Assembly: GCA_024682255.1 (NCBI GenBank)
Contig: GCA_024682255.1_4716.1
Reading direction: 5' to 3' (one strand)
DNA: 64,000 nt
DNA from: a phage
In this document: positions 110-60,704 of the stretch, piece after piece
Layout of the letters: every line of letters begins with the position of its first letter
How positions within the stretch are numbered: position 1 is the first letter of the stretch
Notes under the pieces: generated by a model
Told to the model about the DNA's origin: nothing
Databases searched by the model: none
The model's input: the letters and a program-made list of their open reading frames with translations, nothing else
Made by a program: the position numbers and the translations under genes

Positions 110-143
110 CCTTCTCCCCAACCCGATGAGGGAAGGGGAGAAG
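110..143 (-). terminator. Intrinsic terminator hairpin between convergent genes
   Basis: Arms ccttctcccc / ggggagaagg are perfectly complementary. An A10 run at 87-96 on the plus strand becomes a U-tract immediately 3' of the hairpin on the minus-strand RNA, giving a classic rho-independent terminator for the gene at 162-437. Confidence 0.7.
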
Positions 144-161
144 GGCTATGCGCTATTTAAT

Positions 162-437
162 TTATTTCGAGGTTAACCACGATTCAATTGTGGTGAGTTT
201 GCTTCTCAGTACGCGCCAACTAGGGTGTGGTGGGATCACAGCGCCTTTGTCGATTACGGTTAGCTGAACCTGGTACTTCTGTTGCATACGTGCTACCGTG
301 TCGCTTATCGAGAGGAAAAGCTGGTAACGTTCATATGCCGTCAGTTCACTGTCCTGTTGAACTGCGTTGGCCGCTAACGTAATTTCGCGTAAGTCCTTTG
401 CATCCACAGAGACGGTAATGAGTTTATATTGACTCAT
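162..437 (-). CDS. hypothetical protein (91 aa)
   Basis: ATG start at 437 with AAGGAAA Shine-Dalgarno-like site upstream; stop at 162. Confidence 0.6.
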   Translation of the reverse strand: MSQYKLITVSVDAKDLREITLAANAVQQDSELTAYERYQLFLSISDTVARMQQKYQVQLTVIDKGAVIPPHPSWRVLRSKLTTIESWLTSK

Positions 438-456
438 ACGGTTTCCTTATCAACTA

Positions 457-478
457 GGGTATTGCAAATACAATACCC
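457..478 (-). terminator. Stem-loop downstream of the 852-aa gene
   Basis: Perfect 8-bp inverted repeat gggtattg / caataccc with a 6-nt loop, directly after the stop at 499. Confidence 0.45.
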
Positions 479-498
479 GTCGTCGGACGATAAGTTAA

Positions 499-3057
499 TT
501 ACTGCTCATCACGTTCCAGCAGATACTCGGAAGCGGTAATACCGTTTACCGTACGTACTGCTTTCAGACGAGTATCATCACTCAGAATCACAGTAACAGA
601 TTGTAGACCTTTTACTTTGGTTTCGAAGGTCTTGAATACCTGATCCAGCATACGAGCAATGCTTGGGTTGGTTGCAGCCGATGCGTGAGTGTAACCGCTC
701 TGGTTCAGCTTCAGAATCTTGGCGTTGGTCGGTACGCGAACAACAACATGCGGACGCATCGCGAACACGCTGTGATTAAACCAGTAAGCATCGTTGCTAT
801 CTTCGTCGGTAACGATGTCCGGATTAACACGCATATCCTCGATAGCCGCATCCGCCAAACGACGTTCGATTTCGTCAGCATCCAGAGAGCCATCTTTCTC
901 CAGTTCTGCACGATACTCGCTCATGGCAACCAGATGACGTTCACGATTCGCTGCGGATTTTTCGTGAGCTGCTTTCAGGTAGTCATGCATGTTGTACAGT
1001 TCAGCCATGGAAAGACGAATGTTCCACTGACCTTCGCCATCACGATTGCAGTAGAGACACTTCAGCATGTTGACCCAGGTGTAGTAGCAATTGGAGAATT
1101 CATCTTCAATGAACTTCTGGTCCATTTTAAGATCGTGAATCAGCCAACCGGACAGTTCTCCGATATCATCAACGAAGCTAGAGATGGTGGTTTCAGAGAA
1201 GTTCTTCGGTACGATACGTTTGATCAGCTTATTGACGTCTTTGGTCATGCTATCGTTCAGGAAATGCCAAATACGCAGAGGAATGACATCTCGATACTGT
1301 TGCATGATCTGACGATAAGCTTTGATATCGTCGCTACGACCTTTATCAATAGACAACGCATCCAGGAATTCATGGATTGCATCCAGCTCTTTGTCGGTAT
1401 AGGTTCCCAGATAGGAATTGACGGTGGCCAGGAATGCTAATGCGTCGTTTTGGTTAACGTCGGTGTTGGTCTGCTGAATGATCGCCACTGCAGCTTTAGT
1501 TTCAGCATCCTCAACGCTTGACGCTGCGATTGCATCGGTGACGGTAAACAGTTTCATTTCGCGCTGCTCACCGACAACGATTGGCTCACGCTGAACCGGC
1601 TTGTTAAGACTAACACGAACAACTTCTGCTTGCGCGATACGATCCAGTTTTGCCATTTCCTGCTCTGCCATACGACGAGCGGTTGGATCTGATTCAAGTT
1701 CGATGTATTCCACTTCTTCCTCCGTGAGGGATGTAATGTCAACAATGGTTTCATGAAGAATTCCGTTTTCGTCGATACGTGCTCGACGAGCGAAGTGCCT
1801 GAAGTCATACAACGTCGGCCAACGACTATTAGGTGCGTAGTCTTTGGCTTTCAGACGCATCTGCATAAATTCATCATGTTGAACAACACGACCGTAACGC
1901 TTAGCATCTTCGGTCGCATCAATTGGATTAACGGTCTTTGTTGCCGTAGCGGAACGAGCCGTACGAACCGGTTCCGGTTTCACCTGCGCCGGTTCAGGTT
2001 GAACGGGTTTCTGCTGTCCAGCCTTAACATGCCATTCTGGCTCTTCGTACTGTTCAGCAAATTGCTCAGCCGCTGCAAAGATATCGTTGATACCACCAAT
2101 ATCTCCTTCAGGATTTGTCGAGTAAATCCGTGGTTGTGGTGCCTCGTAACGCGGCGCTGTAGCAGCAGGTGCATCATCAACGATAGGATCGTCATCACCA
2201 ACATCATACAAACGGTTGAACGCACAATCCTTCGAATCGATGTACGATGGCGCTTGTGGTTGAACAACCGTCGGCCGAGGTTGTGCGCCGTATCCTGGCG
2301 TTGTTGGAGCCATACCACGCATAACTGCCGGATTAGGCCGGTATTGCGGTTGCGGATAGGTTCCACCATACATGGCGTACGCTGGCTGTTGTGGTTGACC
2401 GTACCCGCCACTAACCATCGCGCTTGCTTGCGGACCACGATAAGTCATCCCCATCTGCATCACCTGCTGCTTCAAACCACGTGACTTCTGAGCGATTTGC
2501 GCCAGGCTCCCACTTTTATTCAGCTGCGTGTACTTATTCGCGGCTTCCGGGTTAATGCGTGATAATTCAATCGCGCGATAATATTCCGGGTACTGATTCG
2601 GTTCAAAGAGCCACGTTACAAGATGATACAGCGCAACTGTGCTCACGGCAGCAGAGACGATCTGGTCGTCGGACGCGTTCTGTGGCATCGGGTTGATGTA
2701 AGAGAACACGTTCCAACAACAGTCTTCAACAAGCGATTCCATCATCATGTCGTTATTGGTATAACGTGCGACGAACTCGGTTTGTATTTTGTCTTGCTGA
2801 GCGAAGTCTTTCAGGACATTAAAGATGGCTTGACGGATTTTGACGATCGTCGCTTCTTGGGTGATGAAGTTATAGTTCTGCTGATATGAGGGTTGTTGGT
2901 ATTGTGGTGGTTGATAGGCGTTATTCGGGTATGCGCCGTACGGCGATTGCTGATACTGTTGCTGACGAACCTGTTCAGCCGTATAATTAACCGTGCTCGT
3001 ATAAGGGTTTTCGCTATAGCCCATTTGTTGATACATGTTGTTACTGCCGTTATACAT
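499..3057 (-). CDS. hypothetical large protein (852 aa) with Gln/Tyr/Pro-rich low-complexity N-terminal region
   Basis: ATG at 3057 with AAAGGAT upstream. The first ~250 aa are compositionally biased (repeated YQQ, PQ, GY motifs). No recognisable catalytic motif. Confidence 0.8.
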   Translation of the reverse strand: MYNGSNNMYQQMGYSENPYTSTVNYTAEQVRQQQYQQSPYGAYPNNAYQPPQYQQPSYQQNYNFITQEATIVKIRQAIFNVLKDFAQQDKIQTEFVARYTNNDMMMESLVEDCCWNVFSYINPMPQNASDDQIVSAAVSTVALYHLVTWLFEPNQYPEYYRAIELSRINPEAANKYTQLNKSGSLAQIAQKSRGLKQQVMQMGMTYRGPQASAMVSGGYGQPQQPAYAMYGGTYPQPQYRPNPAVMRGMAPTTPGYGAQPRPTVVQPQAPSYIDSKDCAFNRLYDVGDDDPIVDDAPAATAPRYEAPQPRIYSTNPEGDIGGINDIFAAAEQFAEQYEEPEWHVKAGQQKPVQPEPAQVKPEPVRTARSATATKTVNPIDATEDAKRYGRVVQHDEFMQMRLKAKDYAPNSRWPTLYDFRHFARRARIDENGILHETIVDITSLTEEEVEYIELESDPTARRMAEQEMAKLDRIAQAEVVRVSLNKPVQREPIVVGEQREMKLFTVTDAIAASSVEDAETKAAVAIIQQTNTDVNQNDALAFLATVNSYLGTYTDKELDAIHEFLDALSIDKGRSDDIKAYRQIMQQYRDVIPLRIWHFLNDSMTKDVNKLIKRIVPKNFSETTISSFVDDIGELSGWLIHDLKMDQKFIEDEFSNCYYTWVNMLKCLYCNRDGEGQWNIRLSMAELYNMHDYLKAAHEKSAANRERHLVAMSEYRAELEKDGSLDADEIERRLADAAIEDMRVNPDIVTDEDSNDAYWFNHSVFAMRPHVVVRVPTNAKILKLNQSGYTHASAATNPSIARMLDQVFKTFETKVKGLQSVTVILSDDTRLKAVRTVNGITASEYLLERDEQ

Positions 3058-6364: not shown

Positions 6365-6572
6365 CGTCAACCTCCATCTGATTGAAAACTATCACGCATA
6401 ACGCATTTCCCTTTTCTTGTTCTTATCAATCCGACAGCCGACGGTTTCAGCATCGTTCCTAGCGCGAGAACGACCTTACGTGTTGTCTATGCCTTATTCA
6501 TCGCAGGCGTCTGTCACCTAGGTAATGTAAGCGTCAAATTTTTTCTATTCGCAACGATAAACGGCATAGAAA

Positions 6573-6603
6573 CCTCCCCCAACCCTTACGGGCTGAGGGA
6601 GGC
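6573..6603 (-). terminator. GC-rich hairpin of the dispersed family, downstream of the 740-aa gene
   Basis: cctccc...gggagg arms 100 bp past the stop at 6702; preceded on the plus strand by catag, which is TATG on the minus strand after the hairpin. Confidence 0.55.
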
Positions 6604-11371: not shown

Positions 11372-11403
11372 CCCTCCTCCAACCCGTAAGGGAAGGAGGA
11401 GGG
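11372..11403 (-). terminator. Hairpin of the dispersed family between convergent genes
   Basis: ccctcctcc aacccgtaa ggaaggagggaggg, with an A11 run at 11348-11358 on the plus strand (U-tract on the minus strand). Confidence 0.6.
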
Positions 11404-11419
11404 GTTATGACCGCTTTGA

Positions 11420-13772: not shown

Positions 13773-13857
13773 GCTCGGCTCCTTGATTACGATAAGGATG
13801 ATTGTGGTTTTGTGATGCTGGTAGGGCTCCTTTGTTTAGGGCCCTACCAATATTGGG

Positions 13858-14717: not shown

Positions 14718-14735
14718 GGATTAGACAGCATAGAA

Positions 14736-14767
14736 CCCTCTCCCAACCCGTAAGGGAAGGGAGAGGG
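14736..14767 (-). terminator. Hairpin of the dispersed family (core type ccctctccc aacccgtaa gggaagggagaggg)
   Basis: A 12-bp stem with a symmetric AA/AA internal loop and a four-nucleotide loop, sitting between the stop at 14774 and the next gene; catag precedes it on the plus strand. Confidence 0.6.
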
Positions 14768-14773
14768 AATATA

Positions 14774-20639: not shown

Positions 20640-20690
20640 CGCAGATTCCTGTTTGAAAGATAAGATATCACATGATGGTCGACAGCATAA

Positions 20691-20712
20691 AGCCCACCCC
20701 GAAGGGCGGGCT
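20691..20712 (-). terminator. Intrinsic terminator of the 1128-aa gene
   Basis: On the minus-strand RNA this reads AGCCCGCCC-UUCG-GGGUGGGCU followed by UUUAUGCUG. The stem contains a G-U wobble on the minus-strand RNA but an A-C mismatch on the plus strand, so it is strand-specific. Confidence 0.65.
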
Positions 20713-26521: not shown

Positions 26522-26628
26522 TTGGGACTCCTACGTAGGAAAATCTTGGCGGGTGATCATGTCCGCCATTTACCTTCTGAACCGTTGATTCAGAAGTCAA
26601 AAGATAACCGGATACCAACGCCATAAAA

Positions 26629-26660
26629 CCTTCCTCCAACCCAACAGGGAAGGAGGAAGG
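26629..26660 (-). terminator. Hairpin of the dispersed family (ccttcctcc variant)
   Basis: Arms ccttcctcc / ggaggaagg carry compensatory changes relative to the core type. Confidence 0.55.
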
Positions 26661-29286: not shown

Positions 29287-29334
29287 GTGTTGTCTCCAGT
29301 AATGATTCAAAAGATAAACCTGGACGGCATAGAA

Positions 29335-29366
29335 CCCTCTCCCAACCCGTCAGGGAAGGGAGAGGG
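29335..29366 (-). terminator. Hairpin of the dispersed family (core type, loop cccgtcaggg)
   Basis: ccctctccc / gggagaggg arms, preceded by catag on the plus strand. Confidence 0.6.
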
Positions 29367-37594: not shown

Positions 37595-37616
37595 AACAAA
37601 ATAGCATGAGCATAAC

Positions 37617-37648
37617 CCTCCTCCAACCCAACAGGGAAGGAGGAGGGA
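37617..37648. terminator. Bidirectional hairpin between convergent genes (ccctcctcc variant)
   Basis: Lies between the plus-strand stop at 37594 and the minus-strand stop at 37657. Confidence 0.6.
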
Positions 37649-37656
37649 ATATGCTG

Positions 37657-40600
37657 TTATCTTACGTTATTGCTATTCTGCTGTTCGCTGAACCAACCAT
37701 ACACCTTGAGATCGGTACCGTATTTCAATGCGATATACGCATTCAGCGCAGCACAGAACAAAGACGCGAATGCCCATATCAGCGAAGGATCAACATCTTC
37801 CGTTACCACCTGGAGAGTATTATCCGGTTCCCATGATGGAGAACTGTCCATGAACGTTGCGTACCATCCCCGCCGTTGTTCTTCGGTGGTAAAGTCGCTA
37901 TGAGGTTCCAACGCTTCTTTTGCCAGACGTCGATATTCGAACATATGCGTTGCTAAAGCCGATGAGTTACCAGATTCGCCTTCATAGTTCGGATCCACCG
38001 CATAACAGAGTTCTGTTGAATCTAACAAAGCAACCGCCTGTGTGATGCTGTCGGCAGTACCTGCACCATAGAGCTCGATAGACCGCGAAAGCTTTTCACA
38101 GAACGTATTTAACGCGGCAGGATTGGACACCTGAAGGTCAAGGCCTAATGTCCACGGATAGTTACTGAACACACCCGTGAACCGCGGCATAACACCCAAC
38201 AGATGCTGACCGATTACGGCACGGTTATAAACAGCCCGGTTATAGACTTGAAACGCAGCCTCCAAGGCTTGGTTATAATGACGACGAAGTTCATCACGTG
38301 AGTTGCGGAATCTGTTTGCCGCAAGACTCGTGGCTGCGACGCTACAAACATCGTAATTGGTGGACGAAAGCACAACCTCGTTAAGATCGAACGCTTCCTG
38401 TTTCAATGTTCCGCTAACAGCCGCCGCTTCGCTGTTCGCTTTATCGACAACAGTACTCAAGGCGTTGATGTAACGTTTAGCTCGGACTTCCAGCCACTGT
38501 GCGATGCCGAGAATATCCACCGCAGCTTTAGCAAGATCGCGTGCATTCACGATTTCGTTCTTCAACGCCCCTAAACCTTTATTCTCAGGCGAAGAGGCTT
38601 GTTGGCGAATCATGCTGTTCAACATGGTAAGCAGATTATCCAACTCATGTCCACTGACCTTGTTACGCGCATCGGTAATCGGCCCTTGCAGGAATTTACG
38701 GCAACCGTCGTTGTATCGAATCAGTTTATCCACATCGATAGATTCGTTCGTGGATTCCTTGAACTGATCCTTCAATTCTTCACGGTAGTCGTGGATTTCA
38801 CTTGCGAGATTGTCGATAGTGATACCATCATGTCCAAGAAGAACTTTATCGAAGTTACCTTTCTCGAATGCCAGAGCAAGACCTTCACGAATCTTAGCGA
38901 GTTTATCTTGATCGAGTTCACGCCCGTTCGATAGCTCTTTCACTTCCGAACTGATTAGTGCCGCAACGTTACCCAGATTGTCGGTAACGCCTTTGAACGC
39001 TCCCGACCAGATCGTTCCTGCTTCAGCGTATTTCGCAATGGTCTGAATACCGACGGTGTGCAACGACGCTAAACGTTTCTTCGTGCCTTCGGTAAGCAGA
39101 GCGTCTTTAGCTCGTGTAAGCTGACTGTTATTGGCTTCCGCCTGCTGAATCGCTGCTTTCGCACTTCCATTACGCCAGCTCTTAACCAGCCAATCGACCA
39201 AACGTTTTAGAATGTTGACGGTGTATTCCATCGTCCGCCGTAACGTTTCCCACGCGCTTTCTGCGGTATAGATGCCGTACCCTTCCATCTTCAACGCTTT
39301 CAAGCTTGTTTGACGTGCCAACCATTCTACCGTTGCAGAACAAACGTTTACTAATGCTTCTAGGTAGTTGTAATAGACGTCTGTTGCAGCCGTTTCGTTG
39401 AGCTTTGAATGCAGATAAAACTGATCGTAAAGTTCGTCGTCATCGCCGAAGGCATCGTAGTTCCACAGCTCAGTATCGCAGCCTGTGCCGCAGAAGACGT
39501 CTGCTGTTGTAAACTCTTTAAGCGCTTTAGCCGCATCATTCGTCAGGAATTTACCTGTTTCAACTACATCATCGACGTTAAGCTTGGGGAGTTCATCGGT
39601 AACTGGCTCTTGCAACATTAACGTGTTGAAGAATGCGCTGTACTTGTATCCGAGCCATTTTGGATAACTGCTTTCAGGTATCGTAGACAACGGCTTGATT
39701 TTCTTGGCTTCAGCCAGCGTGTCTTTTGCAACCTGATATTGGTTTTCCCCAGCCTTGATGCGTCGTAACGCTTTTTCTTCCAACTGCTGGAGTTTGGCAT
39801 GCCGTGCTTGTGCTGGAGCTTCAACGAGTTTTTGTACCGACTGCATTGCTGAAATCGCTTCTTTTAATACGATCATCGGCATACGAACTTTGCCGTCGTC
39901 AAAACTAAGAGCACGAGCGACACGCTTACTTACGACAGGTTTGTCGTGGATATTTCGTTCCACCCACGATTTGTTTGCGTAAGTTTGAGCGATTTGCTGT
40001 TGGATATTTTCAAGGTATTTCCAGCTTTTGGATGCCTTGCTATCCAAAAGCGGATTCGGTCCCTTCTTATCGAAAAGTTTCAGAATCGGATCAAAGAAAC
40101 CTTCCTGTACAAGATCGATACGTGTATATCCGTCAGCCGCTTCGATTTCTTCTTGGGTTTTATCCCAAAGCTCTTCGCTACGGATAGCAGTAGCGGTTTC
40201 AGATACCGACATAACAAGCTCAGCAACAGCTTCAGCGTAAGTCAGTACGGTACGCACACATTGCACTAACATGCGCTGGTAAACGATACGTGCGTTTTGC
40301 AGACGTGCGATAACCGCTAAATATCCGATGTTGTCAAGATTTTCATCGGCTTGAGCGGATTCAACGCGTTCTAACAGTTGTTTAACTAGCGCCGCTGTTT
40401 CTGGGTAATCGTTCACGACGTCACGCATGATTCGTGATGCGAAAACCGCGGTACCTAAAACGGTGAGAAGTGTTTTACCGTCCCATTCTTTCGGTGCTGC
40501 TACCGATTCAGTAGGGATGAGATTTCCCGCTTGGTCGAAGTACGGCATAAGGACATTGATATCAGTCGACGGAACAGCAGTAACTGCGTTGTACTCTTCA

Positions 40601-41277: not shown

Positions 41278-41308
41278 CCTAGGTGGAGGTTATTGGCCTC
41301 CACCTAGG
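41278..41308 (-). terminator. Hairpin with 12-bp perfect stem
   Basis: cctaggtggagg-ttattgg-cctccacctagg, between the stop at 41344 and the next start at 41262. Confidence 0.55.
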
Positions 41309-49475: not shown

Positions 49476-49513
49476 GCCCCTCCCCCTGGCGGAAGCCGGA
49501 GGGAGGGGTGGGG
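49476..49513. terminator. Bidirectional hairpin between convergent transcription units
   Basis: cccctcccc...gggagggg arms with a 15-nt loop, preceded by an A-rich stretch. Confidence 0.55.
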
Positions 49514-49514
49514 T

Positions 49515-50000
49515 TTATGTGTGTTCGTTGCCAACTTTCACTTTGTAATCAGCATCGGTTAAGAAAATAGACAGGAATCCATGTTCTTTGCAAATCTGAC
49601 TAAGGATGTCAGCAATGATTTCGTTGATCATCGGTTTGTTTGCAAGGGCATAGATGTACCCGGGTGTAAAAGAAAGTGCATGATTGATCATAGGCTCATG
49701 AGAAGCCAAGATAAGGATCACGTGATGCTTCCCATCGTCGGTAACGACCGCTTGCGTAGACACGAAGAAATCAGTGAAGCAGCAGCGATCACAGGCTTTA
49801 GGTATATACAAATCACCCAGAGCTTCGTCACGTGCTTTTACGTGTGTTTCAGGGGTAATGCTGCTAAGTTGATCTTCAGCGAGATCCAAGACATCCTCAA
49901 TCGTTTTAAGAATAGCGTTGCGGAAATCCTCGCGGTAGAATGGGATGATATCACGATCGTTCATGTAATCGCCGGATTCGATAGTAAAGTTGATGTTCAT
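49515..50000 (-). CDS. hypothetical small protein (161 aa), member 1 of a nine-gene array
   Basis: ATG at 50000 with AGGAG upstream. Confidence 0.75.
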   Translation of the reverse strand: MNINFTIESGDYMNDRDIIPFYREDFRNAILKTIEDVLDLAEDQLSSITPETHVKARDEALGDLYIPKACDRCCFTDFFVSTQAVVTDDGKHHVILILASHEPMINHALSFTPGYIYALANKPMINEIIADILSQICKEHGFLSIFLTDADYKVKVGNEHT

Positions 50001-50050
50001 TGAATGCTCCTAGTGGTTATGTCGATTGATTGATGTATTGATTTATGTTT

Positions 50051-50069: not shown

Positions 50070-50070
50070 G

Positions 50071-50511: not shown

Positions 50512-50542
50512 TGTTTCTTTTCCTGTTATAGTCAACATATAG

Positions 50543-50573
50543 CCCTTCCCCGGCCTTGACGGCTAGGGAAGGG
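50543..50573 (-). terminator. Hairpin of the dispersed family (cccttccc variant)
   Basis: cccttccc...gggaaggg arms; catatag precedes it on the plus strand. Confidence 0.5.
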
Positions 50574-50588
50574 TATGTTTACGTATAT

Positions 50589-50984: not shown

Positions 50985-51141
50985 TTTTTATCCTTAATGT
51001 TATCGATTTAGAAATATTACTTAATTACTGTTTTATTTATCGATGGTTGTTACCCATGATGGGAAAGCCGGATGGAAACAGAGCGTGAACGTAACCTTCG
51101 TATCGTATTTAATCGCTGAACTTTATCTTTGATAGACATGA

Positions 51142-51600: not shown

Positions 51601-51626
51601 TTTCTACCTCAATAGTTTAACCGGCA

Positions 51627-51652
51627 CGTGTCCCCACCTAACAAGGGACACG
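51627..51652 (-). terminator. Hairpin cgtgtccc-loop-gggacacg
   Basis: 8-bp stem between array members. Confidence 0.45.
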
Positions 51653-51666
51653 ATATCATCGATTAA

Positions 51667-52161: not shown

Positions 52162-52206
52162 ATTCACTTCTTTCTTAATCTAAATGTTAGTTGGGGGATG
52201 GGATGC

Positions 52207-52809: not shown

Positions 52810-52863
52810 ATCGAATTCCTTAAATTCTCTTGAGTTCAATTGATGATGAAAAGCTGTAAAAAA

Positions 52864-52881
52864 GGTGGGGCGAACCCCACC
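52864..52881 (-). terminator. Classic intrinsic terminator
   Basis: On the minus strand: GGUGGGG-UUCG-CCCCACC followed by UUUUUU, directly after the stop at 52907. Confidence 0.7.
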
Positions 52882-52906
52882 AAAACGTCAGACACACGCA
52901 GGAAAA

Positions 52907-53332
52907 TTAATTCAGTGACGCATATAAGGCATAACGACTGTAGATTTCAACCGCCGGTCCGTTATGCGTTAACAGACCATCCCGGTTGTAATACTGGAAA
53001 AATGAATAACGTTTGTCGAAGTGATAAACAAAAGCAATGTCTTTGCCGTCAAAACCTGTGATGCGTGGTCTGTTTTTATCTAGCAATGCTTTAACTTTTA
53101 ACAGTGTTGCCGCACGTGCTTTAACGTTAGGGATCAAGCCATCACAATCGATATAAACAGTGTAACCTGTTTCAGATGTTGCGACGGTCGTATTGCGATT
53201 GACGCGGAAGATTTTTGTTTCGTATGTACTATCTTCAAGAATTGGGTTTTGTTTTTCGTATTTTCGTTTACGCAGAAATTCTACAACGGTGATATAGTTA
53301 GCGGTAATATGCCCGGTTATAGCTTGTAACAT
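52907..53332 (-). CDS. hypothetical small protein (141 aa), array member 7
   Basis: ATG at 53332 with AAAGGATG upstream. Confidence 0.75.
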   Translation of the reverse strand: MLQAITGHITANYITVVEFLRKRKYEKQNPILEDSTYETKIFRVNRNTTVATSETGYTVYIDCDGLIPNVKARAATLLKVKALLDKNRPRITGFDGKDIAFVYHFDKRYSFFQYYNRDGLLTHNGPAVEIYSRYALYASLN

Positions 53333-53448
53333 CTCGACATCCTTTTATATTGGATTGATTGCAATTGTCTTAAATAGATGATAAGATATTTTGCTCTTAT
53401 CACTAAGGTAACGCTTACGCGTCGCGTTCATGATGCATGGCATCATGA

Positions 53449-53473
53449 AGGTAATGTAGTCGTGAAATAAACT
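53449..53473 (-). promoter_or_regulatory. Conserved leader motif, copy 3 of 3, with adjacent inverted repeat
   Basis: aggtaatgtagtcgtgaaataaact matches 14692-14716 at 20 of 21 positions; an inverted repeat ttcatgatg-catgg-catcatgaa lies at 53427-53449. Confidence 0.45.
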
Positions 53474-53504
53474 GCGTTAACACGAAATAAAAAACAGCAT
53501 AGAA

Positions 53505-53536
53505 CCCTCTCCCAACCCGTAAGGGAAGGGAGAGGG
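53505..53536 (-). terminator. Hairpin of the dispersed family (core type)
   Basis: Identical core to 14736-14767 and 60673-60704; an A-run and catag precede it on the plus strand. Confidence 0.6.
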
Positions 53537-53549
53537 AATATTAAAATTG

Positions 53550-54005
53550 TCACTTTATATTGAACGCTTTTCGCAACGCATTAAGAACTAAATTAATTTC
53601 TTGCGCTTGTAACTTTAATCCCTGTGCTGAGCCATCAAACCCAAGCCAACGCCATACAAGGCATTTTACAGGTTTGTTGCTATCGTCGATACTATATGTG
53701 ATCTCCAGTGTACTTTGATACGCGTAGTCACCATGTGTTTTCAGTGACTGATTGAAATAAATATCAAATGCTTCTTCTATAGCCTGTTTACCGCGATCGT
53801 TACAAACAAACGCGATGTATCCGTCGGAATATCCAACTTCCTCTGGATGTCCTTGGCAGGAGAAAATACTGATGGCGTCTTGCTGAGCAAGATTGAACAC
53901 CGTGAAGAAATCACCAAATAAAGGATCGAGATTTAATGCGTTGTTATCGATAAGGTTCCTTACCGCTTTACGGTATTCTCCCAGACTATTGTTCGCTGTA
54001 AACAT
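53550..54005 (-). CDS. hypothetical small protein (151 aa), array member 8
   Basis: ATG at 54005 with AAAGGTAA upstream. Confidence 0.75.
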   Translation of the reverse strand: MFTANNSLGEYRKAVRNLIDNNALNLDPLFGDFFTVFNLAQQDAISIFSCQGHPEEVGYSDGYIAFVCNDRGKQAIEEAFDIYFNQSLKTHGDYAYQSTLEITYSIDDSNKPVKCLVWRWLGFDGSAQGLKLQAQEINLVLNALRKAFNIK

Positions 54006-54015
54006 TCTTTTACCT

Positions 54016-54417
54016 TTAAATATCGTGGATAGCGGTGCCGTTTAGCCAACAATACAACTTAATGCGACACGGATAGCGATTCGTAGCCAAGAGCAGTTCA
54101 TCGCGTAAACGCTGGTAGATTTCATCCTGGTGTTCGCGATCAATGGGGTAATCGGCCCAACATTCGATCATGACGTCACCATTCGTCAGAATCGTCGTAC
54201 GCATCCTGTCCTGGATACGGCGGTCTTTCCCGGCATTAGGGAAATACATTCCTTCGGTACGAATAAGGTCGCCGCAGGGCATGACTAACCATTCGTTCGT
54301 TTTGCCGGTATTCTTATAATCCATTACAGCTTGCATTGCGGTGTCAACGCTAAAAGAAACATAATTCCAAACGGATGTCCAACGATAGATTGCGGGTTGT
54401 TCGAGTGTTTCGTTCAT
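54016..54417 (-). CDS. hypothetical small protein (133 aa), array member 9
   Basis: ATG at 54417. Confidence 0.7.
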   Translation of the reverse strand: MNETLEQPAIYRWTSVWNYVSFSVDTAMQAVMDYKNTGKTNEWLVMPCGDLIRTEGMYFPNAGKDRRIQDRMRTTILTNGDVMIECWADYPIDREHQDEIYQRLRDELLLATNRYPCRIKLYCWLNGTAIHDI

Positions 54418-54471
54418 GGAGTGCTTGTCCTATTTTTATTTTCTGCACAGGATAAATTCAACGGCATAAAG

Positions 54472-54510
54472 CCCTTCCCTGCCCTTATATGGGGCGGGAA
54501 GAGTTTATGA
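54472..54510 (-). terminator. Hairpin of the dispersed family (cccttccc variant with longer loop)
   Basis: cccttccctgccc-ttatat-ggggcgggaagag; cataa precedes it on the plus strand. Confidence 0.5.
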
Positions 54511-54631
54511 CCGCAATGAGAATCTCTCACGACAAGCTCACGACGATTATCGCATCACCCCGCGAGTGAGGGAGATCAGGATCACCTCCTACGTCGTAAC
54601 GACAGTAATCCCGTTAACGCCACCTTAGGCA

Positions 54632-55258
54632 TTATGCAAAGCGACGCATGTAACCTGCCAGATAGTTACGCGTATCGAAGTAAGCAATTTCAGGAATTGC
54701 GATGTTAAGGTCGATAGCGCGGATTTCAACTTGGCGACGGCTTTCATCATAGATCGCATCCATCAGACGCAGTACTGTCAGGAAAGCCATGCGGGTATGG
54801 TAGTCCAGCGGCATGTTGTCGATACCGCGATACAGATAACGGTTTGCGTTAAATGCCCCTTCGCTGTTATCTTTCCAGATCTTCAGAATATCAGCAAAGG
54901 CGGTGCGGAAAACCTCAGGATTATCCACATCCAGTAACGCACGGAAGGCAGACATTAAAGACCGCTGATGGCGGATCAACGACTGCGGCGTTTGCGGCAT
55001 GGTTGGACCCATTTCTTCCGCATATTTCTGGAACGGGGCAACCAGGGTTGCGGCACGAGAAGCCACGATAGAAACAGCAGGCGATTCTTTCACCGCTGGT
55101 TTCGCAGGCTTTTCTTCAACAACGGTTTCCTTCTTCTCAACAGCGACCGTTTCCGGCTGTGCTACAACATCACTAACCGGAGCATCTGCAACGGTGGTTT
55201 CTACCGCAGTAATCTCCTCGTCCATTTTTGCAGAACGTTGGTCTTTATTCTTGCTCAT
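54632..55258 (-). CDS. hypothetical protein (208 aa) with Ala/Glu/Val/Pro-rich N-terminal region
   Basis: ATG at 55258 with AAAGGAAA upstream. Confidence 0.75.
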   Translation of the reverse strand: MSKNKDQRSAKMDEEITAVETTVADAPVSDVVAQPETVAVEKKETVVEEKPAKPAVKESPAVSIVASRAATLVAPFQKYAEEMGPTMPQTPQSLIRHQRSLMSAFRALLDVDNPEVFRTAFADILKIWKDNSEGAFNANRYLYRGIDNMPLDYHTRMAFLTVLRLMDAIYDESRRQVEIRAIDLNIAIPEIAYFDTRNYLAGYMRRFA

Positions 55259-55283
55259 GTTTATTTCCTTTTGTTTAACAAGG

Positions 55284-56585
55284 TTAACTAATATAAAGTT
55301 CAGGATCGTAAGGCGCTAACGATACACTGGCGTTATGCATTGCTTTCATCATAGTGTTCATGAAAACGTTGTTTACACCGGTGATCTCTGCCCCGATCGC
55401 ATCTGGGGTTGGAGCCATCGCGTTACCGCAACAGGTAGCACAGTATTCCAATGGGCCTGCTTTACAACGTTGAGGATCACGTAACTTGATGGTCTGTCCT
55501 TCCAAGGAAGCGAGTAATTCAGCATCAATAAGTTTAAGCGCCGCGCCGTCGATCATGTAACGGCCGACAAGCAGCTTATCTTTGATGTGGTCGCGGTTTA
55601 CCGTGAACAGAATATGTTCGTGGGTACCACAGTCGTCCATCGTGATTTTAAGGTTCTGTGTCGCACGTTGCGATTCTTTCGCCGTCTGTCCAGCTAAAGC
55701 GGTCAACGCACCACGTGAGAACGAACCAGCACGTGCGCTGTTGTTGTACTCCGCCCAATGGTCGACACGCATCCCTTCAGCCAGGCTGTGTGTGATAACG
55801 TTACGTTTACCGGGGTCAACGAAGTCGGCTTCAACCCCCATCATGATGTGCGTTTTCTTTCGAGTATTACCGAAACTCTTGCCTGGGTTAATATAGAACC
55901 CTTCCGATTCATCGCCCTTAAAGGATTCCTTATCCATTTTGGTTAGCGTGGCTTCGAGTTTGATCAGTTCTTCAGGCGTGAACTTACCTTCCTCTTGTAA
56001 GCGTGCTAACTCTTTATCGCGATAGGCAATAATATCATCATCGACCGTTAACGCTTTATCGCTCATCGATGGGACAATTAAACGGTTGATAGCGGTTAAC
56101 GCACTGATATTGTTGGTGAATTTCTTCACTTCGCTTGCGTACAGCGGGCCAATAGGACGTTCGTTAGGATCGGGTATTCCCTCTTCGGGATCGTCAGCTA
56201 CGCGTGGCGCAATCAGTGACTCCAGTGTGCCGCTGGTCAACCGTCCTGCCTGGTATTCAATCTGAATACCGAAAGCATCATAAAGGACGTACATATTGAA
56301 CAGAGCTTCGCCGAAGGTTGTGGTGGTTGTGTTCTTAACCGACGGTAGATCGCCAGGTGCGAGCTCCAATGGCTCCCAGAAACTCAACAAGGGTTTTGTT
56401 GGCTCGGTTTCCCATTGGTGTTCTTCACCGTCGATGGTAACCGTAACGACGTTACCTTGACGACGTAATTTAGGCTGATACTTCTCAGCGCCGCCTTCCG
56501 TAAAAGCAAATGCGTCGTTAATCCATTCAAGATAACGGTAGTGCCCTTCACGCATCGCGTAAAGGAAATATTCACGAGGTGTCAT
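55284..56585 (-). CDS. multisubunit RNA polymerase beta-prime subunit, C-terminal fragment (bridge helix and trigger-loop region)
   Basis: ATG at 56585 with AAAGGAG upstream. The translation contains TMDDCGTHEHILF (bacterial beta-prime EDDCGTHEG), a preceding bridge-helix-like SRGALTALAGQTAKESQRATQNL, and a downstream CATCCG / AIGAEITG segment paralleling CAHCYG / GEAIGVIAAQSIGEPGTQ. The NADFDGD catalytic motif is absent, so the subunit is split. Confidence 0.8.
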   Translation of the reverse strand: MTPREYFLYAMREGHYRYLEWINDAFAFTEGGAEKYQPKLRRQGNVVTVTIDGEEHQWETEPTKPLLSFWEPLELAPGDLPSVKNTTTTTFGEALFNMYVLYDAFGIQIEYQAGRLTSGTLESLIAPRVADDPEEGIPDPNERPIGPLYASEVKKFTNNISALTAINRLIVPSMSDKALTVDDDIIAYRDKELARLQEEGKFTPEELIKLEATLTKMDKESFKGDESEGFYINPGKSFGNTRKKTHIMMGVEADFVDPGKRNVITHSLAEGMRVDHWAEYNNSARAGSFSRGALTALAGQTAKESQRATQNLKITMDDCGTHEHILFTVNRDHIKDKLLVGRYMIDGAALKLIDAELLASLEGQTIKLRDPQRCKAGPLEYCATCCGNAMAPTPDAIGAEITGVNNVFMNTMMKAMHNASVSLAPYDPELYIS

Positions 56586-56598
56586 GTAACAACTCCTT

Positions 56599-57471
56599 TT
56601 AAACCCGGGTCAGGTCACCGTGACGTGAAACGAACTCTGATAACGCTCGGGTTGCTTCTTTGGATTCTTCAGCCATCGGGAAGTTTGCGGTAATAAGTTC
56701 TCGTAAGACAGGGACGAGTTCGTTATCTTCGAGATCAGAAGCTAAAGCGAATGCAATCAGTTCTTGGGTGTATGCATACGGTTGCTGACGTAATGCAGTA
56801 AGCTGATCCCGACACTGCGACATTAGCAGGTCCAGTGGAACCGCTATCGTACCCCCTTCATCAATATACTGGCTGAACACCGGTGGGAACGCATCGCTGA
56901 TGACACGAATACGTCGACGAATATGATCCGGAATCTGGACGTTTTCTTCGTCGACGACGTTTTCGCTATCTTTCTCCAGCTTCTTGGTCAGTACCTGTTG
57001 AATGCGTGGGAGTAAGCTTGAATGTACGAAACCGATTAATGGGGTTACATTCGCAGCATCGACGCCGTAAATGTGACGCGTACATTCTGCTAACGCTTCA
57101 GCTGCGGTGTAGTCTTCATCTTCAACGATAGCAAGTAGAAAAGCGGTATCGTCGTGTGTTTCCAGGTCTAATAACGTAGACGCTAGCGCATGAAGATATT
57201 TCAGGCTATCCAGCGATAGCTGTCCTTCGTTAATTCGGATCCCGAAGGCAAGCAATTGTTGTTTATAAAGTTCGATACATCCGTTTGTTAAAATGATGTC
57301 TAATTCGTTTAAATCGTATTGTTCCCCAGCACCTGACAACATCGTACTGCAGAACGTTTCCAGTTGTTCACATTTAAAATCTTGGTATAAACGATGCGTG
57401 CAGTGCTGTAACAGCGTACGCCTTGTTTCAGGGATCTTACCTTCTAACAAAGCCAAGACGGAATCAATCAT
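56599..57471 (-). CDS. hypothetical protein (about 290 aa)
   Basis: The track's start at 57477 is GTG; the ATG at 57469-57471 with GGAG upstream is used. Confidence 0.7.
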   Translation of the reverse strand: MIDSVLALLEGKIPETRRTLLQHCTHRLYQDFKCEQLETFCSTMLSGAGEQYDLNELDIILTNGCIELYKQQLLAFGIRINEGQLSLDSLKYLHALASTLLDLETHDDTAFLLAIVEDEDYTAAEALAECTRHIYGVDAANVTPLIGFVHSSLLPRIQQVLTKKLEKDSENVVDEENVQIPDHIRRRIRVISDAFPPVFSQYIDEGGTIAVPLDLLMSQCRDQLTALRQQPYAYTQELIAFALASDLEDNELVPVLRELITANFPMAEESKEATRALSEFVSRHGDLTRV

Positions 57472-57567
57472 ATCCACTCCGATGCGGTAAATGTCTACTA
57501 GCTCTCATAATCTATTGAAGAAACTACCAGCTTACGCCAACTTAGATTAATCAGGAGTAACCATCCC

Positions 57568-58041
57568 ATGCCAGTTTCATCCAAACCAAGAAAAAAATCC
57601 GTAGGAAACCCTAAAGCTCAGGAAACAACAGCAATTCGTTGGGACGAGTTACGTGAACCTATCGAAAACTGCGAATTGTTATTAGGTACCCTGGGTGCGG
57701 CTATTTACCAAGCGACGCAGCCCTGTCGTTTACGATTAACCCAAAACAAACGTGATGAGTTCGTTGCGTTATCAACAAGCACGAATAAAGATCTGACCGA
57801 ACTTCAAACCGAATTGACGACGATCAAGAACTCCATTACGCCGATGTACGGTAAAGAAGTTGATGAACAAAGTATTCTGTTACAGTACAACTACGGGATG
57901 TCGTTAATGAACATCCTGGAACGCGCATCCGATATTCTGCGTCCTGACGTTGCACGCCTGAGCCAACTGCGTGTTGAAGGGATGGAGAACCAGATCCGAT
58001 TCGCTAACAGCGTTAAATCTCAAGGAGCCACCGAAGCATGA
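57568..58041 (+). CDS. hypothetical protein (157 aa)
   Basis: ATG at 57568; divergent from the gene at 56599-57471; the stop overlaps the next start (ATGA). Confidence 0.7.
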   Translation: MPVSSKPRKKSVGNPKAQETTAIRWDELREPIENCELLLGTLGAAIYQATQPCRLRLTQNKRDEFVALSTSTNKDLTELQTELTTIKNSITPMYGKEVDEQSILLQYNYGMSLMNILERASDILRPDVARLSQLRVEGMENQIRFANSVKSQGATEA

Positions 58042-59723
58042 GCGAACAAGAAAAAGAAGTCGTGACGAATCAGGAAGCCGTTGAGCGTTCAGAGTCGTCT
58101 GTTGAAACAACGATTCCGGCAAGTTCCGAGCCTGTTGGTTCCGTACAGCAGGAAAGTAAAGACGAAGTCAACACTACTAAAGAAGATGTAGTGGCTCCAG
58201 AAGCAACCCGTGAAGAAGAACCGTCACATCCACCGCTAATCGATTTCTCGAAGGCGACGATACGTTTCCAATGCGAAGACATTCGTCCTAAGAGTCCGAA
58301 GAAAACAAAACGTCAGCCGTTGGTGTTACCGTTATATTCTCCGCGTGTGCAGACAACGTATTACCGGGAATACATCAACGAAGCAATGGATACCGTGCAA
58401 GCCATTGTCGCTCAACGCGGTAAACCGACAGACGAACAGTTTGATAAATTCAGTAAAGCGGTGGTGCAATCGGTTGCTGATGGACAATATCATCCGCGTG
58501 GTCCAGCTCACGATCGCGCGTTGGAACGTAAAGGCAGTCAGTGGACTAACGTACCCGTAGACTCATCGGGTGTTGGTCGCGTTATTCCTGGCATTCCGCA
58601 ACCGAACCATATTCCTGATGATGTCGAAGCGCCGCTGACAGGAACCGATGCGATCTATTTTGCTATCCGTAATACGAAATCAGGCGCACCTGCGGTAATG
58701 CCGTTATGGCATAGCGGTATTAAGCTGCAGTTCAATCCGCCGTCAAATGAACGTGTTGCAATTATGCACGAACGTATTGCACGCGATAAAATCCTGGGTG
58801 GTCGTGATAGCACCGGTTTCCTGTTTTCGGCAACCTCGATTATCACCATGAAGCACGCAATCGAATTAGCGTTAGAATGCTGTTACATGGCCAACGTACC
58901 GAACCTGGATATCCAGCGTTTGAAAGACATTATTCCGGTTACCGATGTTCCGGCGTTGTTGTTGAACGTGCTGGTAACCATGTATCCGTACGGGTATCCT
59001 TACGTACAGACCTGCTATCAGAATCCAGAAACCTGCGACTATCGTGTCGAAGATACCGTAAGCTTTGCGAAGCTCTATCAAGTTGACAACAGCGCAATTA
59101 CCAAACGTATGCGACAGATCATGACCGAAGGTCCGGTCATGACAGATGAACTTTTGCGTGAGTATGCGAACGAGCTGGGTGAAACGAACTCCCGTACGCT
59201 GGATCTGTCCGACAACGGTTCTGTTATCATTGAACTCGAAGTACCGAAGATCTCACGACAAATCGCCATGGGTGAACGTTGGTTAAGCGATACGCTGGAA
59301 GATCTGCGTGATATTCTATCGCGTCCGTCGATGACCGAAGAAGAGCGTGATCGTGTTATTCGTGAACGTCAGTTCTATAGCTGGATGCGTCAGTATGATG
59401 CGTGGATCAAATCGATGCATGTGTCGGTAAACGGTACCATGCGTCGTGTAAGCGATGCAGATACGGCAACGGTATTAGCACAGCTGTCTCGTGACAGCGA
59501 CCTTCGTGAACGCTATATCGATGGGCTGATGCAATTCATCGGTGATTCGACGATTGCGCTCGCAGCGATGCCTGCCTGGAAATGTCCGAAATGTAATGCC
59601 GATATTGCTGACAATCTGCGTGACCAGAAATACTACGATCTGATTGCTTTGGATGTACCCCAGCTTTTTTTTACCCTAAACTCCGTCCAATCTCTTCAGG
59701 AGGGGATGGACGCGGTATTCTAA
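58038..59723 (+). CDS. hypothetical protein (561 aa) with C-terminal CxxC element
   Basis: ATG at 58038 with AAGGAG upstream; WKCPKCN near the C-terminus. Confidence 0.8.
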   Translation: MSEQEKEVVTNQEAVERSESSVETTIPASSEPVGSVQQESKDEVNTTKEDVVAPEATREEEPSHPPLIDFSKATIRFQCEDIRPKSPKKTKRQPLVLPLYSPRVQTTYYREYINEAMDTVQAIVAQRGKPTDEQFDKFSKAVVQSVADGQYHPRGPAHDRALERKGSQWTNVPVDSSGVGRVIPGIPQPNHIPDDVEAPLTGTDAIYFAIRNTKSGAPAVMPLWHSGIKLQFNPPSNERVAIMHERIARDKILGGRDSTGFLFSATSIITMKHAIELALECCYMANVPNLDIQRLKDIIPVTDVPALLLNVLVTMYPYGYPYVQTCYQNPETCDYRVEDTVSFAKLYQVDNSAITKRMRQIMTEGPVMTDELLREYANELGETNSRTLDLSDNGSVIIELEVPKISRQIAMGERWLSDTLEDLRDILSRPSMTEEERDRVIRERQFYSWMRQYDAWIKSMHVSVNGTMRRVSDADTATVLAQLSRDSDLRERYIDGLMQFIGDSTIALAAMPAWKCPKCNADIADNLRDQKYYDLIALDVPQLFFTLNSVQSLQEGMDAVF

Positions 59724-59815
59724 TCGATCCGCGATACGGGTTACATGACGGACAACTTGTTCGTAATGATGAAAAAATCTGGGAATTGCTGTTAGCGCGT
59801 AAAGGCGATGGTGGC

Positions 59816-60145
59816 ATGAAACTGAACATCGAAATGGGTATAGCGTACGATACCATGTTTGGTTTGTACGACCGCGTTAACGAATGGACACCGTTGAAAT
59901 GGGTGGCTCAGCATCCCGCTGAAGATCCCTGGGACAGATTAGGGATTAAACCCTTAATCGAGGATTATGTTCGATTCGGTATTAAAGAGTTCATGACGCT
60001 GGATGCGTTTTTAAAAGCACCGTATCCTTACGCGCAAACGGTACTCAAAATCGCACAAGACGAACTGCGGAAACGTAGTGCGGTACTGGACGACGATGAG
60101 GACAAGTTACGACGAGAAGAAGAACGTTTACGAAACGGAAAATAA
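59816..60145 (+). CDS. hypothetical small protein (about 109 aa)
   Basis: The track's start at 59786 is TTG; the first in-frame ATG is at 59816. Start uncertain. The stop lies 1 nt before the next start. Confidence 0.5.
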   Translation: MKLNIEMGIAYDTMFGLYDRVNEWTPLKWVAQHPAEDPWDRLGIKPLIEDYVRFGIKEFMTLDAFLKAPYPYAQTVLKIAQDELRKRSAVLDDDEDKLRREEERLRNGK

Positions 60146-60146
60146 A

Positions 60147-60656
60147 ATGGCGAGATTTACCAGTTTGATTGGGTTGGATATTTGGGAAACACCGGCTGAC
60201 GTTCGGGTTATTCCTGTTAACACCGTCGGTGTGATGGGACGTGGTCTTGCTAAGCAGGCAGCCGATCGTGTGCCCGGTCTTCTTGAAGCGTACCGTAAGC
60301 AATGTCAAGATGGGTTTAAGGTGGGAGAAGTCGTGTCATATCAACACGGTGATAACGATCAACTCACTTACGTGCTGTTTCCATCAAAATCGGATTGGCG
60401 TGAAAGAACACGACGCGAGTATATCGTTAACGGTTTACTGGCGTTAAAAGCGTGGTTATTGGAGCTTCAGTTCGAAAGAGACGGCTTCTCATATCGGCGT
60501 CCGGCTGAACCGCTGATCGTTGCAATTCCTCCGGTTGGTTCTGGCTGCGGTAATATCGGCTACGGACAATCCGAAACAATCCAGCCTCAATGGGTACGCG
60601 CACAAATCAAACAGTATCTTGCCACCGTGCCAAACGTTCATTTCTACTTGTTCTAA
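60147..60656 (+). CDS. macro-domain-like (ADP-ribose binding or processing) protein
   Basis: ATG at 60147. DVRVIPVNTVGVMGRGLAKQAADR resembles the macro-domain VNAAN...GGGV...A motif, and LIVAIPPVGSGCGNIGYG resembles the hAhPxIGTGxxG motif. Confidence 0.5.
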   Translation: MARFTSLIGLDIWETPADVRVIPVNTVGVMGRGLAKQAADRVPGLLEAYRKQCQDGFKVGEVVSYQHGDNDQLTYVLFPSKSDWRERTRREYIVNGLLALKAWLLELQFERDGFSYRRPAEPLIVAIPPVGSGCGNIGYGQSETIQPQWVRAQIKQYLATVPNVHFYLF

Positions 60657-60672
60657 TGTAAAGGTAACATAA

Positions 60673-60704
60673 CCCTCTCCCAACCCGTAAGGGAAGGGAG
60701 AGGG
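60673..60704. terminator. Bidirectional hairpin of the dispersed family (core type) between convergent genes
   Basis: Lies between the plus-strand stop at 60656 and the minus-strand stop at 60722. Confidence 0.6.

Follow-up and report, generated by a model that had tools for sequence, protein, structure and literature searches.

What are the GC-rich hairpins that recur in the intergenic gaps of a Goslar-like jumbo phage, and what do they do there? We addressed this question in a 64,000-nt stretch of phage DNA (GenBank assembly GCA_024682255.1, contig GCA_024682255.1_4716.1), hereafter referred to as the window. A sequence-only reading of the same stretch had described about 17 such hairpins between positions 110 and 60704 as one dispersed family of terminators. 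Our analysis indicates, with a probability of roughly 0.8, that the elements are transcription terminators of a Goslar-like chimallivirus, of one class with the terminator motif conserved in phage phiKZ.

The relatives of the window were identified by sequence comparison. A 6-kb piece of the window showed 92% identity to Escherichia phage vB_EcoM_Goslar, and BLAST of the whole window revealed collinearity with Goslar 36.7-96.8 kb at 87-98% identity, except for a few gene-sized insertions or deletions (indels). Goslar, a nucleus-forming jumbo phage that infects E. coli, belongs to the genus Goslarvirus and has a 237-kb genome. At least two additional Goslar-like genomes, neither identical to the window, were present among the matches listed from the IMG/VR database. 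A pattern search of IMG/VR with CCAACCCNNNNGGGAAGG was unspecific, the matches listed being mostly unrelated contigs, and it also returned several shorter contigs with the same hairpin. The proposal to look for the element in related phage genomes was thus borne out, as it is present in Goslar and in Goslar-like IMG/VR contigs. Intergenic DNA makes up 6.2% of the window and 7% of the Goslar genome, and the minus strand carries the majority of the window genes.

We first asked of these sites whether the hairpins are real. A hairpin was present at all 17 positions named in the sequence-only reading. When the whole window was folded in sliding 50-nt segments (mean -8.6 kcal/mol, 0.1 percentile -26.7), 13 of these sites were among the most stable local structures, namely 110, 11372, 14736, 20691, 26629, 29335, 37617, 41278, 49476, 50543, 53505, 54472 and 60673. 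The hairpin at 6573 fell below the cut in the plus-strand scan and was stable on the minus strand through two G.U pairs; alone it folded at -26.5 kcal/mol on the minus (sense) strand vs -17.4 kcal/mol antisense, reaching -31.3 with its flanks. The hairpins alone had free energies of -20 to -27 kcal/mol, and dinucleotide shuffling of eight folded strands gave z-scores of -4.5 to -7.1, with 0 of 200 shuffles equally stable.

Their position follows the ends of genes. All cited sites were intergenic, as had been claimed, and most of them began 6-22 nt past the upstream stop codon, the exceptions being 41278 (35 nt), 6573 (99 nt) and 54472 (128 nt). For comparison, the whole Goslar genome (MK327938, 247 annotated genes) was scanned for stems of 7 bp or more that included 5 or more G-C pairs; an earlier stem rule (6 bp, G.U allowed) was dropped since its 4.5% background left little contrast. 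Intergenic DNA held 61 of the 132 strong Goslar hairpins, an enrichment of about 6.5-fold (p = 1e-34), and these lay a median of 13.5 nt after the stop codon vs 2-806 nt before the next start codon. A GC-rich hairpin soon after the stop codon, a canonical terminator trait, was therefore found.

A conserved box lies downstream of the stem. In every family member the stem was followed after 1-5 nt by TATG, usually continued by YYGT (Y, pyrimidine), as in TTCTATGCTGT, TTCTATGCCGT, TTTTATGGCGT, CTTTATGCTGT and similar strings. The post-stem logo read TATG, C/T, C/T, G, T in the window (n = 16), in Goslar (n = 50) and in phiKZ (n = 41; 128 kb scanned with the same stem finder). The 5' arm of TATG-followed hairpins was 89-97% pyrimidine vs about 50% in other hairpins; in the window alone the values were 97% with TATG and 53% without, and the arms included CCCTCTCCC, CCCTCCTCC and CCTTCCTCC. 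TATG-YYGT is the feature that defines the class, and it had been overlooked in the sequence-only reading. We used a custom scan for stem plus box, instead of a covariance model, to define the class.

The box is tied to the direction of transcription. In co-directional Goslar gaps, a sense TATG occurred within 6 nt of the stem in 18 of 41 cases vs a background of 4-5% (p = 5e-13), and an antisense TATG in 3 of 41; sense-only cases numbered 16 and antisense-only cases 1 (p = 3e-4). Between window and Goslar, the sense box was conserved at 8 of 8 co-directional orthologs, while the antisense near-copy differed at 14736, 26629 and 50543. Copies between convergent genes had been suggested to serve both strands, and the distribution of the box agrees with this: both strands carried it in 8 of 17 convergent vs 2 of 41 co-directional Goslar gaps (p = 4e-4). 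We also considered that the CATA...TATG flanks merely lengthen the stem. This was rejected, because an antisense TATG was present in only 3 of the 41 co-directional Goslar gaps and because at 3 of 8 co-directional sites the antisense TATG differed between orthologs and the sense one was kept.

The U-tract of classic intrinsic terminators, which had been ascribed to several copies, did not hold up. With a test requiring at least 5 T in 8 nt, starting 0-2 nt past the stem, only 52864 was found among the cited sites in a scan of 44-64 kb. Hairpins followed by a T-run were not enriched overall (24 found vs 19.6 expected), and 17% of the pyrimidine-first hairpins in the window had such a run. T content was about 50-60% from +7 to +15, beyond the box, and this T-rich sequence accounts for the earlier impression of U-tracts. 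The box rather than a U-tract is the conserved directional part of the element.

The same layout has been mapped at RNA 3' ends in phiKZ. ONT-cappable-seq of phiKZ defined 133 termination regions (Putzeys et al. 2024, PMC10914365), and 61 of them share the motif BCCYCCCCHWWDGGGRRGGBYTTATKYYGT, a stem-loop followed by a TTAT region (PMC10914365). Motif A of phage 201phi2-1 (n = 59) strongly resembles the phiKZ motif and is often joined by a second, stem-elongating motif (PMC11512511). Our own scan of phiKZ gave 41 TATG-followed hairpins, whose logo, TATG-Y-Y-G-T-T, is in essence that of the window and Goslar. The phiKZ terminator past the major head gene reads CATAG-GCCCTCCC-TTCG-GGGAGGGC-TTTATGTTGT, a layout equal to that of the GCATAGAA-hairpin-...TATG units of the window.

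Four traits of the phiKZ class were found here: a GC-rich stem-loop, pyrimidine in the 5' arm (CCYCCCC) and purine in the 3' arm (GGGRRGG), a YTTATKYYGT box past the stem, a place downstream of genes in sense orientation, bidirectional at convergent pairs, and phage-encoded phiKZ-like multisubunit RNA polymerases. Window proteins include a phiKZ-type RNA polymerase beta-like subunit (55284-56585; PHROG 2962, RNA polymerase beta subunit, E 6e-106), the major head protein (6702-8924, minus strand) and DNA polymerase, and several RNA polymerase subunit genes are annotated in the Goslar record. In window 44001-64000, sigma-70-type promoter-like sites were depleted (15 found vs 36.4 ± 6.9 in shuffles), in keeping with a phage independent of the host RNA polymerase. 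Putative terminators are marked in the Goslar GenBank record at the orthologs of 20691, 52864 and 60673 and also at several family members in other parts of the genome; most Goslar orthologs of the window elements are unannotated. By homology with phiKZ, RNA 3' ends would be expected at the window hairpins. The proposed terminator function is supported by the match to the motif at mapped phiKZ 3' ends and by the position 3' of genes, and the classic intrinsic type that had been assigned to it is not.

The signature is shared by distant phages without being general. We measured the share of pyrimidine-first hairpins followed by TATG in each genome sample and obtained 0.62 for the window, 0.50 for Goslar and 0.61 for phiKZ; the counts were 0 of 14 in SPN3US, with T-runs instead, 1 of 19 in EL, where TAT often occurred without G, and 0 of 2 in 40 kb of Ea35-70. 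A signal common to the whole chimallivirus family was rejected on account of the SPN3US T-runs, the EL boxes mostly lacking G and the few such hairpins in Ea35-70. These figures indicate a signature common to two distant chimallivirus genera and not universal in the family.

Several points weigh against termination at these elements. The stem-adjacent U-tract required for canonical intrinsic termination was not found in the family; the TATG signature was absent from the samples of SPN3US, EL and Ea35-70 (apart from the single EL case); the literature searched yielded no transcript 3'-end data for Goslar or the source phage and no description of terminators for Goslar; and the phiKZ ONT-cappable-seq 3' ends could in part be exonuclease-trimmed ends rather than release sites. 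The last point leads to another explanation, in which transcription ends at some other point, or diffusely, and 3'-to-5' exonucleases trim the RNA back to a hairpin that serves in protection or processing of its 3' end. The hairpins would in that case fix and stabilise the mRNA ends and not release the polymerase. The high stability of the hairpins (-20 to -27 kcal/mol), the lack of a U-tract adjoining the stem and the steady-state nature of the phiKZ 3' ends would all fit such end protection. It leaves the conserved, strand-specific downstream box unexplained, since the box would be trimmed off. In 201phi2-1, moreover, eight selected strong terminators with various motifs, not assigned motif by motif in the text consulted, were active in a terminator trap and blocked the downstream reporter, motif combinations being strongest (PMC11512511). 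We therefore regard end protection as unlikely.

The TATG of the box raises a further question, because phiKZ late promoters, which start at the G, have the same tetranucleotide as their necessary core (Yakunina et al. 2015, PMC4666361), and a pocket of the beta-like subunit of the non-virion RNA polymerase (nvRNAP) binds it (structure, PMC12809450). The box is also always upstream of the next gene. The element might accordingly be read as a late promoter with the hairpin as an upstream element or insulator. The likeness extends to the non-template strand and to the pyrimidine-then-G junction. The phiKZ late promoter has neither an upstream hairpin nor a conserved YYGT, unlike the window elements: the model promoter P119L has no hairpin upstream of TATG, and phiKZ late promoters are unconserved past TATG (PMC4666361), whereas YYGT is conserved here. 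The elements track the stop codon (median 13.5 nt) and not the next start (2-806 nt), the box points into the 3' end of the opposing gene at convergent pairs, and long gaps have a promoter-like motif of their own, ACATTACCT, some 45 nt downstream of the element. A late-promoter role was rejected on the anatomy of P119L and on spacing, and we consider it very improbable.

Another role suggested by the box is translational control, in which the purine arm would sequester a GGAGG-like Shine-Dalgarno sequence and the ATG of TATG would serve as start codon. The spacing from GGAGG to ATG is 4-7 nt, and the ATG is the annotated start of Goslar_00047, Goslar_00111, Goslar_00167 and Goslar_00183 (49772, 117666, 152272 and 166924) and the first in-frame start of the window open reading frame (ORF) 50071-50538. 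The ORFs opened by this ATG have a median of only 12 codons, their peptides are unconserved, and the YYGT conservation is shared with phiKZ irrespective of coding. On ORF length the start-codon or mini-ORF reading was rejected; it is hardly credible as a general function. The few annotated starts may truly rely on the purine arm for ribosome binding, or they may be gene-caller artefacts drawn by the Shine-Dalgarno-like arm; the two very short ORFs (31 and 62 codons) look doubtful.

Are the 17 sites one family, as had been supposed? Our results do not bear this out, as they comprise at least three kinds of hairpin. Eight near-invariant copies, at 110, 11372, 14736, 26629, 29335, 37617, 53505 and 60673, have a two-tier layout on the plus strand: a pyrimidine arm of 9-10 nt, AA, CCC, a tetraloop, GGG, AA and a purine arm. 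A covariance model built from 34 distinct copies recovered exactly these eight sites at E <= 3e-10. Near-identical 32-nt cores occur at the 8 window sites and at 22 sites in Goslar, and in all 8 window copies and 20 of the 22 Goslar copies the AA...AA lies on the plus strand whatever the orientation of the flanking genes. The hairpins at 50543, 54472, 6573, 49476 and 20691 share architecture and flanks with little common sequence, and they scored E 1e-3 to 3. Because these looser members score near noise, a single covariance model is not enough to define the class. The sites 457, 41278 and 51627 are simple hairpins unrelated in sequence to the family, as is 52864.

Among the two-tier hairpins, three lie between convergent genes and have a TATG box on each strand. 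The first (98..154, stem 110-144, both strands) has 10-bp arms CCTTCTCCCC/GGGGAGAAGG and E 2.8e-10, and its Goslar copy is identical. The second (37606..37657, both strands) is followed by AATATGCTGT on the plus and TTATGCTCAT on the minus strand, with z -7.1 and -5.8. The third (60663..60714, both strands; E 7e-21) has its ortholog at Goslar 93445-93476, annotated as a putative terminator. The copy at 11372..11413 (E 1.2e-18) also separates convergent genes; TTATGACCG comes next on the plus strand, and on the minus strand a T11 run begins 12 nt past the stem. The remaining copies belong to the minus strand. That at 14725..14767 lies 6 nt past the stop of a minus-strand ORF, is followed by TTCTATGCTGT (E 8e-21) and adjoins an indel breakpoint vs Goslar at 14772. 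The copy at 26618..26660 has arms CCTTCCTCC/GGAGGAAGG followed by TTTTATGGCGT (E 1e-20), and that at 29324..29366, 22 nt past the stop, is followed by TTCTATGCCGT (E 1.5e-21; z -4.5). At 53494..53536, 13 nt past the stop, TTCTATGCTGT and a T-run follow (E 3e-21; z -4.6), with an indel breakpoint at 53513.

The looser members are more diverse. The minus-strand hairpin at 6561..6602 lies 99 nt past the major head protein gene and is followed by TTTCTATGCCGT (z -6.2); only on the minus strand does it form an unbroken stem of 13-14 bp, with two G.U pairs. A short phiKZ-like terminator at 20682..20712 (minus strand; z -7.0) reads GCCCGCCC-TTCG-GGGTGGGC with TTTATGCTGT behind it; it fits the published phiKZ motif but for 3 mismatches, and its ortholog at Goslar 55080-55101 is annotated as a putative terminator. 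The hairpin at 49477..49523, between DNA polymerase exon 2 (plus) and gene 49515-50000 (minus), has arms CCCCTCCC.. and ..GGGAGGGG with an inner GGC/GCC stem (E 0.9), and TTTATGTGTG stands on the plus strand 5 nt past the stem. A second two-tier subfamily is represented at 50532..50573 (minus strand; E 9e-4) by the inner part CG-GCC-TTGAC-GGC-TA followed by CTATATG, whose ATG is the start of ORF 50071-50538 discussed above; an indel breakpoint lies at 50591, and this type of inner stem recurs at three other Goslar sites. The hairpin at 54461..54503 (minus strand; z -5.8) is followed by CTTTATGCCGT, and its stem is lengthened by CATAAA/TTTATG pairing.

The other hairpins, all on the minus strand, stand apart. 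A classic intrinsic terminator occurs at 52858..52881, where GGTGGGG-TTCG-CCCCACC is followed by TTTTTT; its purine arm comes first, it has no TATG box, and it is annotated as a terminator in Goslar. The hairpin at 41278..41308 is a unique, perfect 12-bp stem outside the family with no TATG box adjacent to it (z -6.1). A simple 8-bp hairpin at 51627..51652, 14 nt past the stop, has neither TATG box nor T-run. The same holds for a weak AT-rich hairpin at 457..478, 20 nt past the stop and folding at about -10 to -11 kcal/mol, whose function is uncertain. A 9-bp intergenic hairpin at 13819..13849, 8 nt past the stop of the minus-strand ORF 13858-.., was absent from the sequence-only reading. At gathering thresholds, the hairpins matched no Rfam family, and the sole Rfam match in the window was a group I intron at 48801-49126.

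The claim that the arms covary was confirmed in an alignment of 34 distinct copies from the window, Goslar and, among the matches listed, IMG/VR contigs with the same hairpin, the two additional Goslar-like genomes among them. Pairing holds in 98.3% of the aligned cells, and at 5 of the 12 pairs both sides vary (45 cells). The observed covariation score was reached by 0 of 500 shuffles, and pairing was 53-70% once the 3' partner was slid. The copies are paralogs with only about 6 arm variants, so that the number of independent compensatory events is small. Moreover, the site after the macro-domain gene has CCCTCTCCC in the window and Goslar vs CCCTCCTCC in an IMG/VR relative; as arm variants swap between orthologous sites, part of the apparent covariation may reflect gene conversion among copies. 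Two compensatory double substitutions distinguish the single-copy 41278 hairpin from its counterpart in Goslar and lend independent support to selection on pairing. The hairpin structure is under selection. In 14 of 18 cases (p = 0.04) the greater stability was on the sense strand, which favours an RNA over a DNA structure.

The swapping of arms raises the question whether the hairpins are instead repeats at the DNA level that recombination or gene conversion has spread and that are used mainly as crossover points for gene cassettes, with any RNA role secondary. Such a view could draw on the near-identical cores at 8 window and 22 Goslar sites, on the exchange of arm variants between orthologous sites, and on three breakpoints of gene-sized indels vs Goslar (14772, 50591 and 53513) that lie 0-20 nt from a terminator hairpin. 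The gene-sized insertions relative to Goslar, at 12846-14627, 14773-15423, 50591-51156 and 53513-54016, carry small ORFs without a PHROG match, and the three breakpoints suggest that gene cassettes have been gained or lost at the hairpin repeats. Intergenic indels are expected to fall near hairpins by chance, however, because the gaps are short. G.U pairs and the higher sense-strand stability indicate RNA, the flanking box is strand-specific relative to transcription, and spread by recombination is compatible with a terminator function. Goslar has an orthologous counterpart for each of the 14 window sites compared, and 53505, outside that set, faces a degenerate Goslar hairpin. No element-only insertion of the kind expected of repetitive extragenic palindromes (REP) or miniature inverted-repeat transposable elements (MITE) was seen among these 14 sites, nor any transposase or target-site duplication, although duplications were not searched systematically. 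We consider repeats as the primary function highly improbable, and recombination is better seen as the route by which terminators spread.

The loops behave differently from the stems. Between window and Goslar, 4 of the 8 two-tier ortholog pairs differed in the tetraloop (10 of 32 loop nt; the inner loops at 26629, 29335, 37617 and 60673) vs 0 changes in 192 stem nt, the genomes diverging by about 2-13% according to segment. Across four genomes the loops were GTAA, GTGA, GTCA, AACA, AGCA, ATCA, GATGA and GTAAT. Gene conversion, a mutational hotspot and selection are possible causes of this variability. Beyond the Goslar-like set, the matches listed from IMG/VR included at least 17 loci (L012, L016, L023, L025, L029, L036, L041, L046, L050, L054, L068, L075, L111, L116, L122, L123 and L128) with the string CCCCCC-AA-CCC-NAAA-GGG-AA-GGGGGG, the same two-tier design in one copy per locus. 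Their A-rich flanks give the opposite strand the form of a terminator made up of hairpin and T-run.

How might such a terminator work? The proposed unit would consist of a GC-rich RNA hairpin, pyrimidine in its 5' arm, purine in its 3' arm and usually two-tier in the Goslar lineage, then 1-5 mostly T residues, and then the TATG-Y-Y-G-T box, often with more T-rich sequence after it. A phage multisubunit RNA polymerase would read past the stop codon, and the nascent RNA would fold into the hairpin. Over UUCUAU the hybrid would be weak and U/A-rich, and this, combined with the pyrimidine-then-G junction TAT|G, could cause the enzyme to pause and be released, the box supplying the role played by the U-tract in bacteria. 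In multisubunit polymerases, pausing is favoured by a pyrimidine at the RNA 3' end with G incoming. The polymerase involved and the pausing role of the box are inferred.

It is conceivable, though we would sooner bet against it, that the terminator TATG is read by the same non-virion RNA polymerase pocket (phiKZ gp123 beta-lobe) as the late-promoter TATG. If true, one 4-nt signal would serve for both start and stop, holding the elongating enzyme a few nt past the hairpin and replacing the U-tract. This would be a sequence-specific, polymerase-encoded termination with no precedent among cellular multisubunit polymerases, and it would account for the presence of the signature in phiKZ and Goslar-like phages and not in the samples of SPN3US, EL and Ea35-70.

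For annotation, the terminator reading would provide a simple rule in Goslar-like phages: wherever a pyrimidine-first hairpin is joined to TATGYYGT, a transcription unit ends there on the box-bearing strand. Goslar-like phages are E. coli models for phage-nucleus biology, for which the literature searched yielded no transcript map. The phiKZ terminator design would thereby be extended to a distant genus with a different host, with the two-tier elaboration as a lineage-specific trait. The question of how non-canonical phage RNA polymerases terminate is sharpened as well, including whether it is by coincidence that terminators and late promoters share TATG.

Other features of the window were noted alongside the hairpins. 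The motif ACATTACCT occurs 5 times in the window vs 0.34 expected, at 6520-6528, 14693-14701, 53449-53457 and 25180-25188 on the minus strand and at 23528-23536 on the plus strand. Three copies lie, in the sense direction, about 45 nt downstream of the 6573, 14736 and 53505 hairpins, within a longer common string TTTCaCGACTACATTACCTTCATGAT that is found in Goslar too. ACATTACCT is a candidate phage promoter, resembling the phiKZ middle-promoter element AAanTTACc. A split DNA polymerase gene occupies 46141-49428 (plus strand). ORF 46141-47640 covers only positions 5-494 of the 576-position DNA polymerase PHROG and is followed by an HNH/NUMOD-type endonuclease ORF (47681-48814); the group I intron core (Rfam RF00028, 48801-49126) scored 68.7 bits; and the peptide at about 49171-49428 can be aligned with the SPN3US DNA polymerase over residues 508-576 (E 1e-9), an alignment that takes in a D-x-x-S-x-Y-P motif. 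The counterpart stretch of the split polymerase in Goslar, 82469-83289, is unannotated. ORF 37657-41262 (minus strand) encodes 1201 amino acids vs 930 in its Goslar ortholog, and its segment 39292-40964 has no match in Goslar, which indicates a variable central domain in a large gene of the structural region.

Compared with known systems, the window elements are closest to the terminators of phiKZ and 201phi2-1. They share the order of hairpin, 1-3 nt and TTATG-YYGT, with an upstream CATAA often able to lengthen the stem, as well as the location just past genes, in both directions at convergent pairs, and the setting of a nucleus-forming jumbo phage with its own multisubunit RNA polymerases. 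The Goslar lineage differs from phiKZ in its 9-10 bp outer stem, AA/AA (sense UU/UU) internal loop, CCC/GGG mini-stem and variable tetraloop, a longer, two-tier version that is dominant there, whereas phiKZ has a single stem of 7-8 bp; its host is E. coli, and the spacer ahead of TATG is more variable (1-5 nt). Promoter-early stem-loop (PeSL) repeats of T4-type phages and REP-like palindromes are likewise dispersed, near-identical intergenic stem-loops at cassette boundaries; in a comparison by description, the window hairpins have no attached sigma-70 promoter and show a clear directional tie to transcription. With canonical intrinsic terminators they have in common a GC-rich hairpin near the stop codon, a U/A-rich start of the downstream sequence (UUCUAU) and distal T-runs at several sites. 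They differ from these in their conserved non-U box, in hairpins that are much longer and more stable, and in the polymerase presumed to act on them, a non-canonical phage enzyme inside the phage nucleus.

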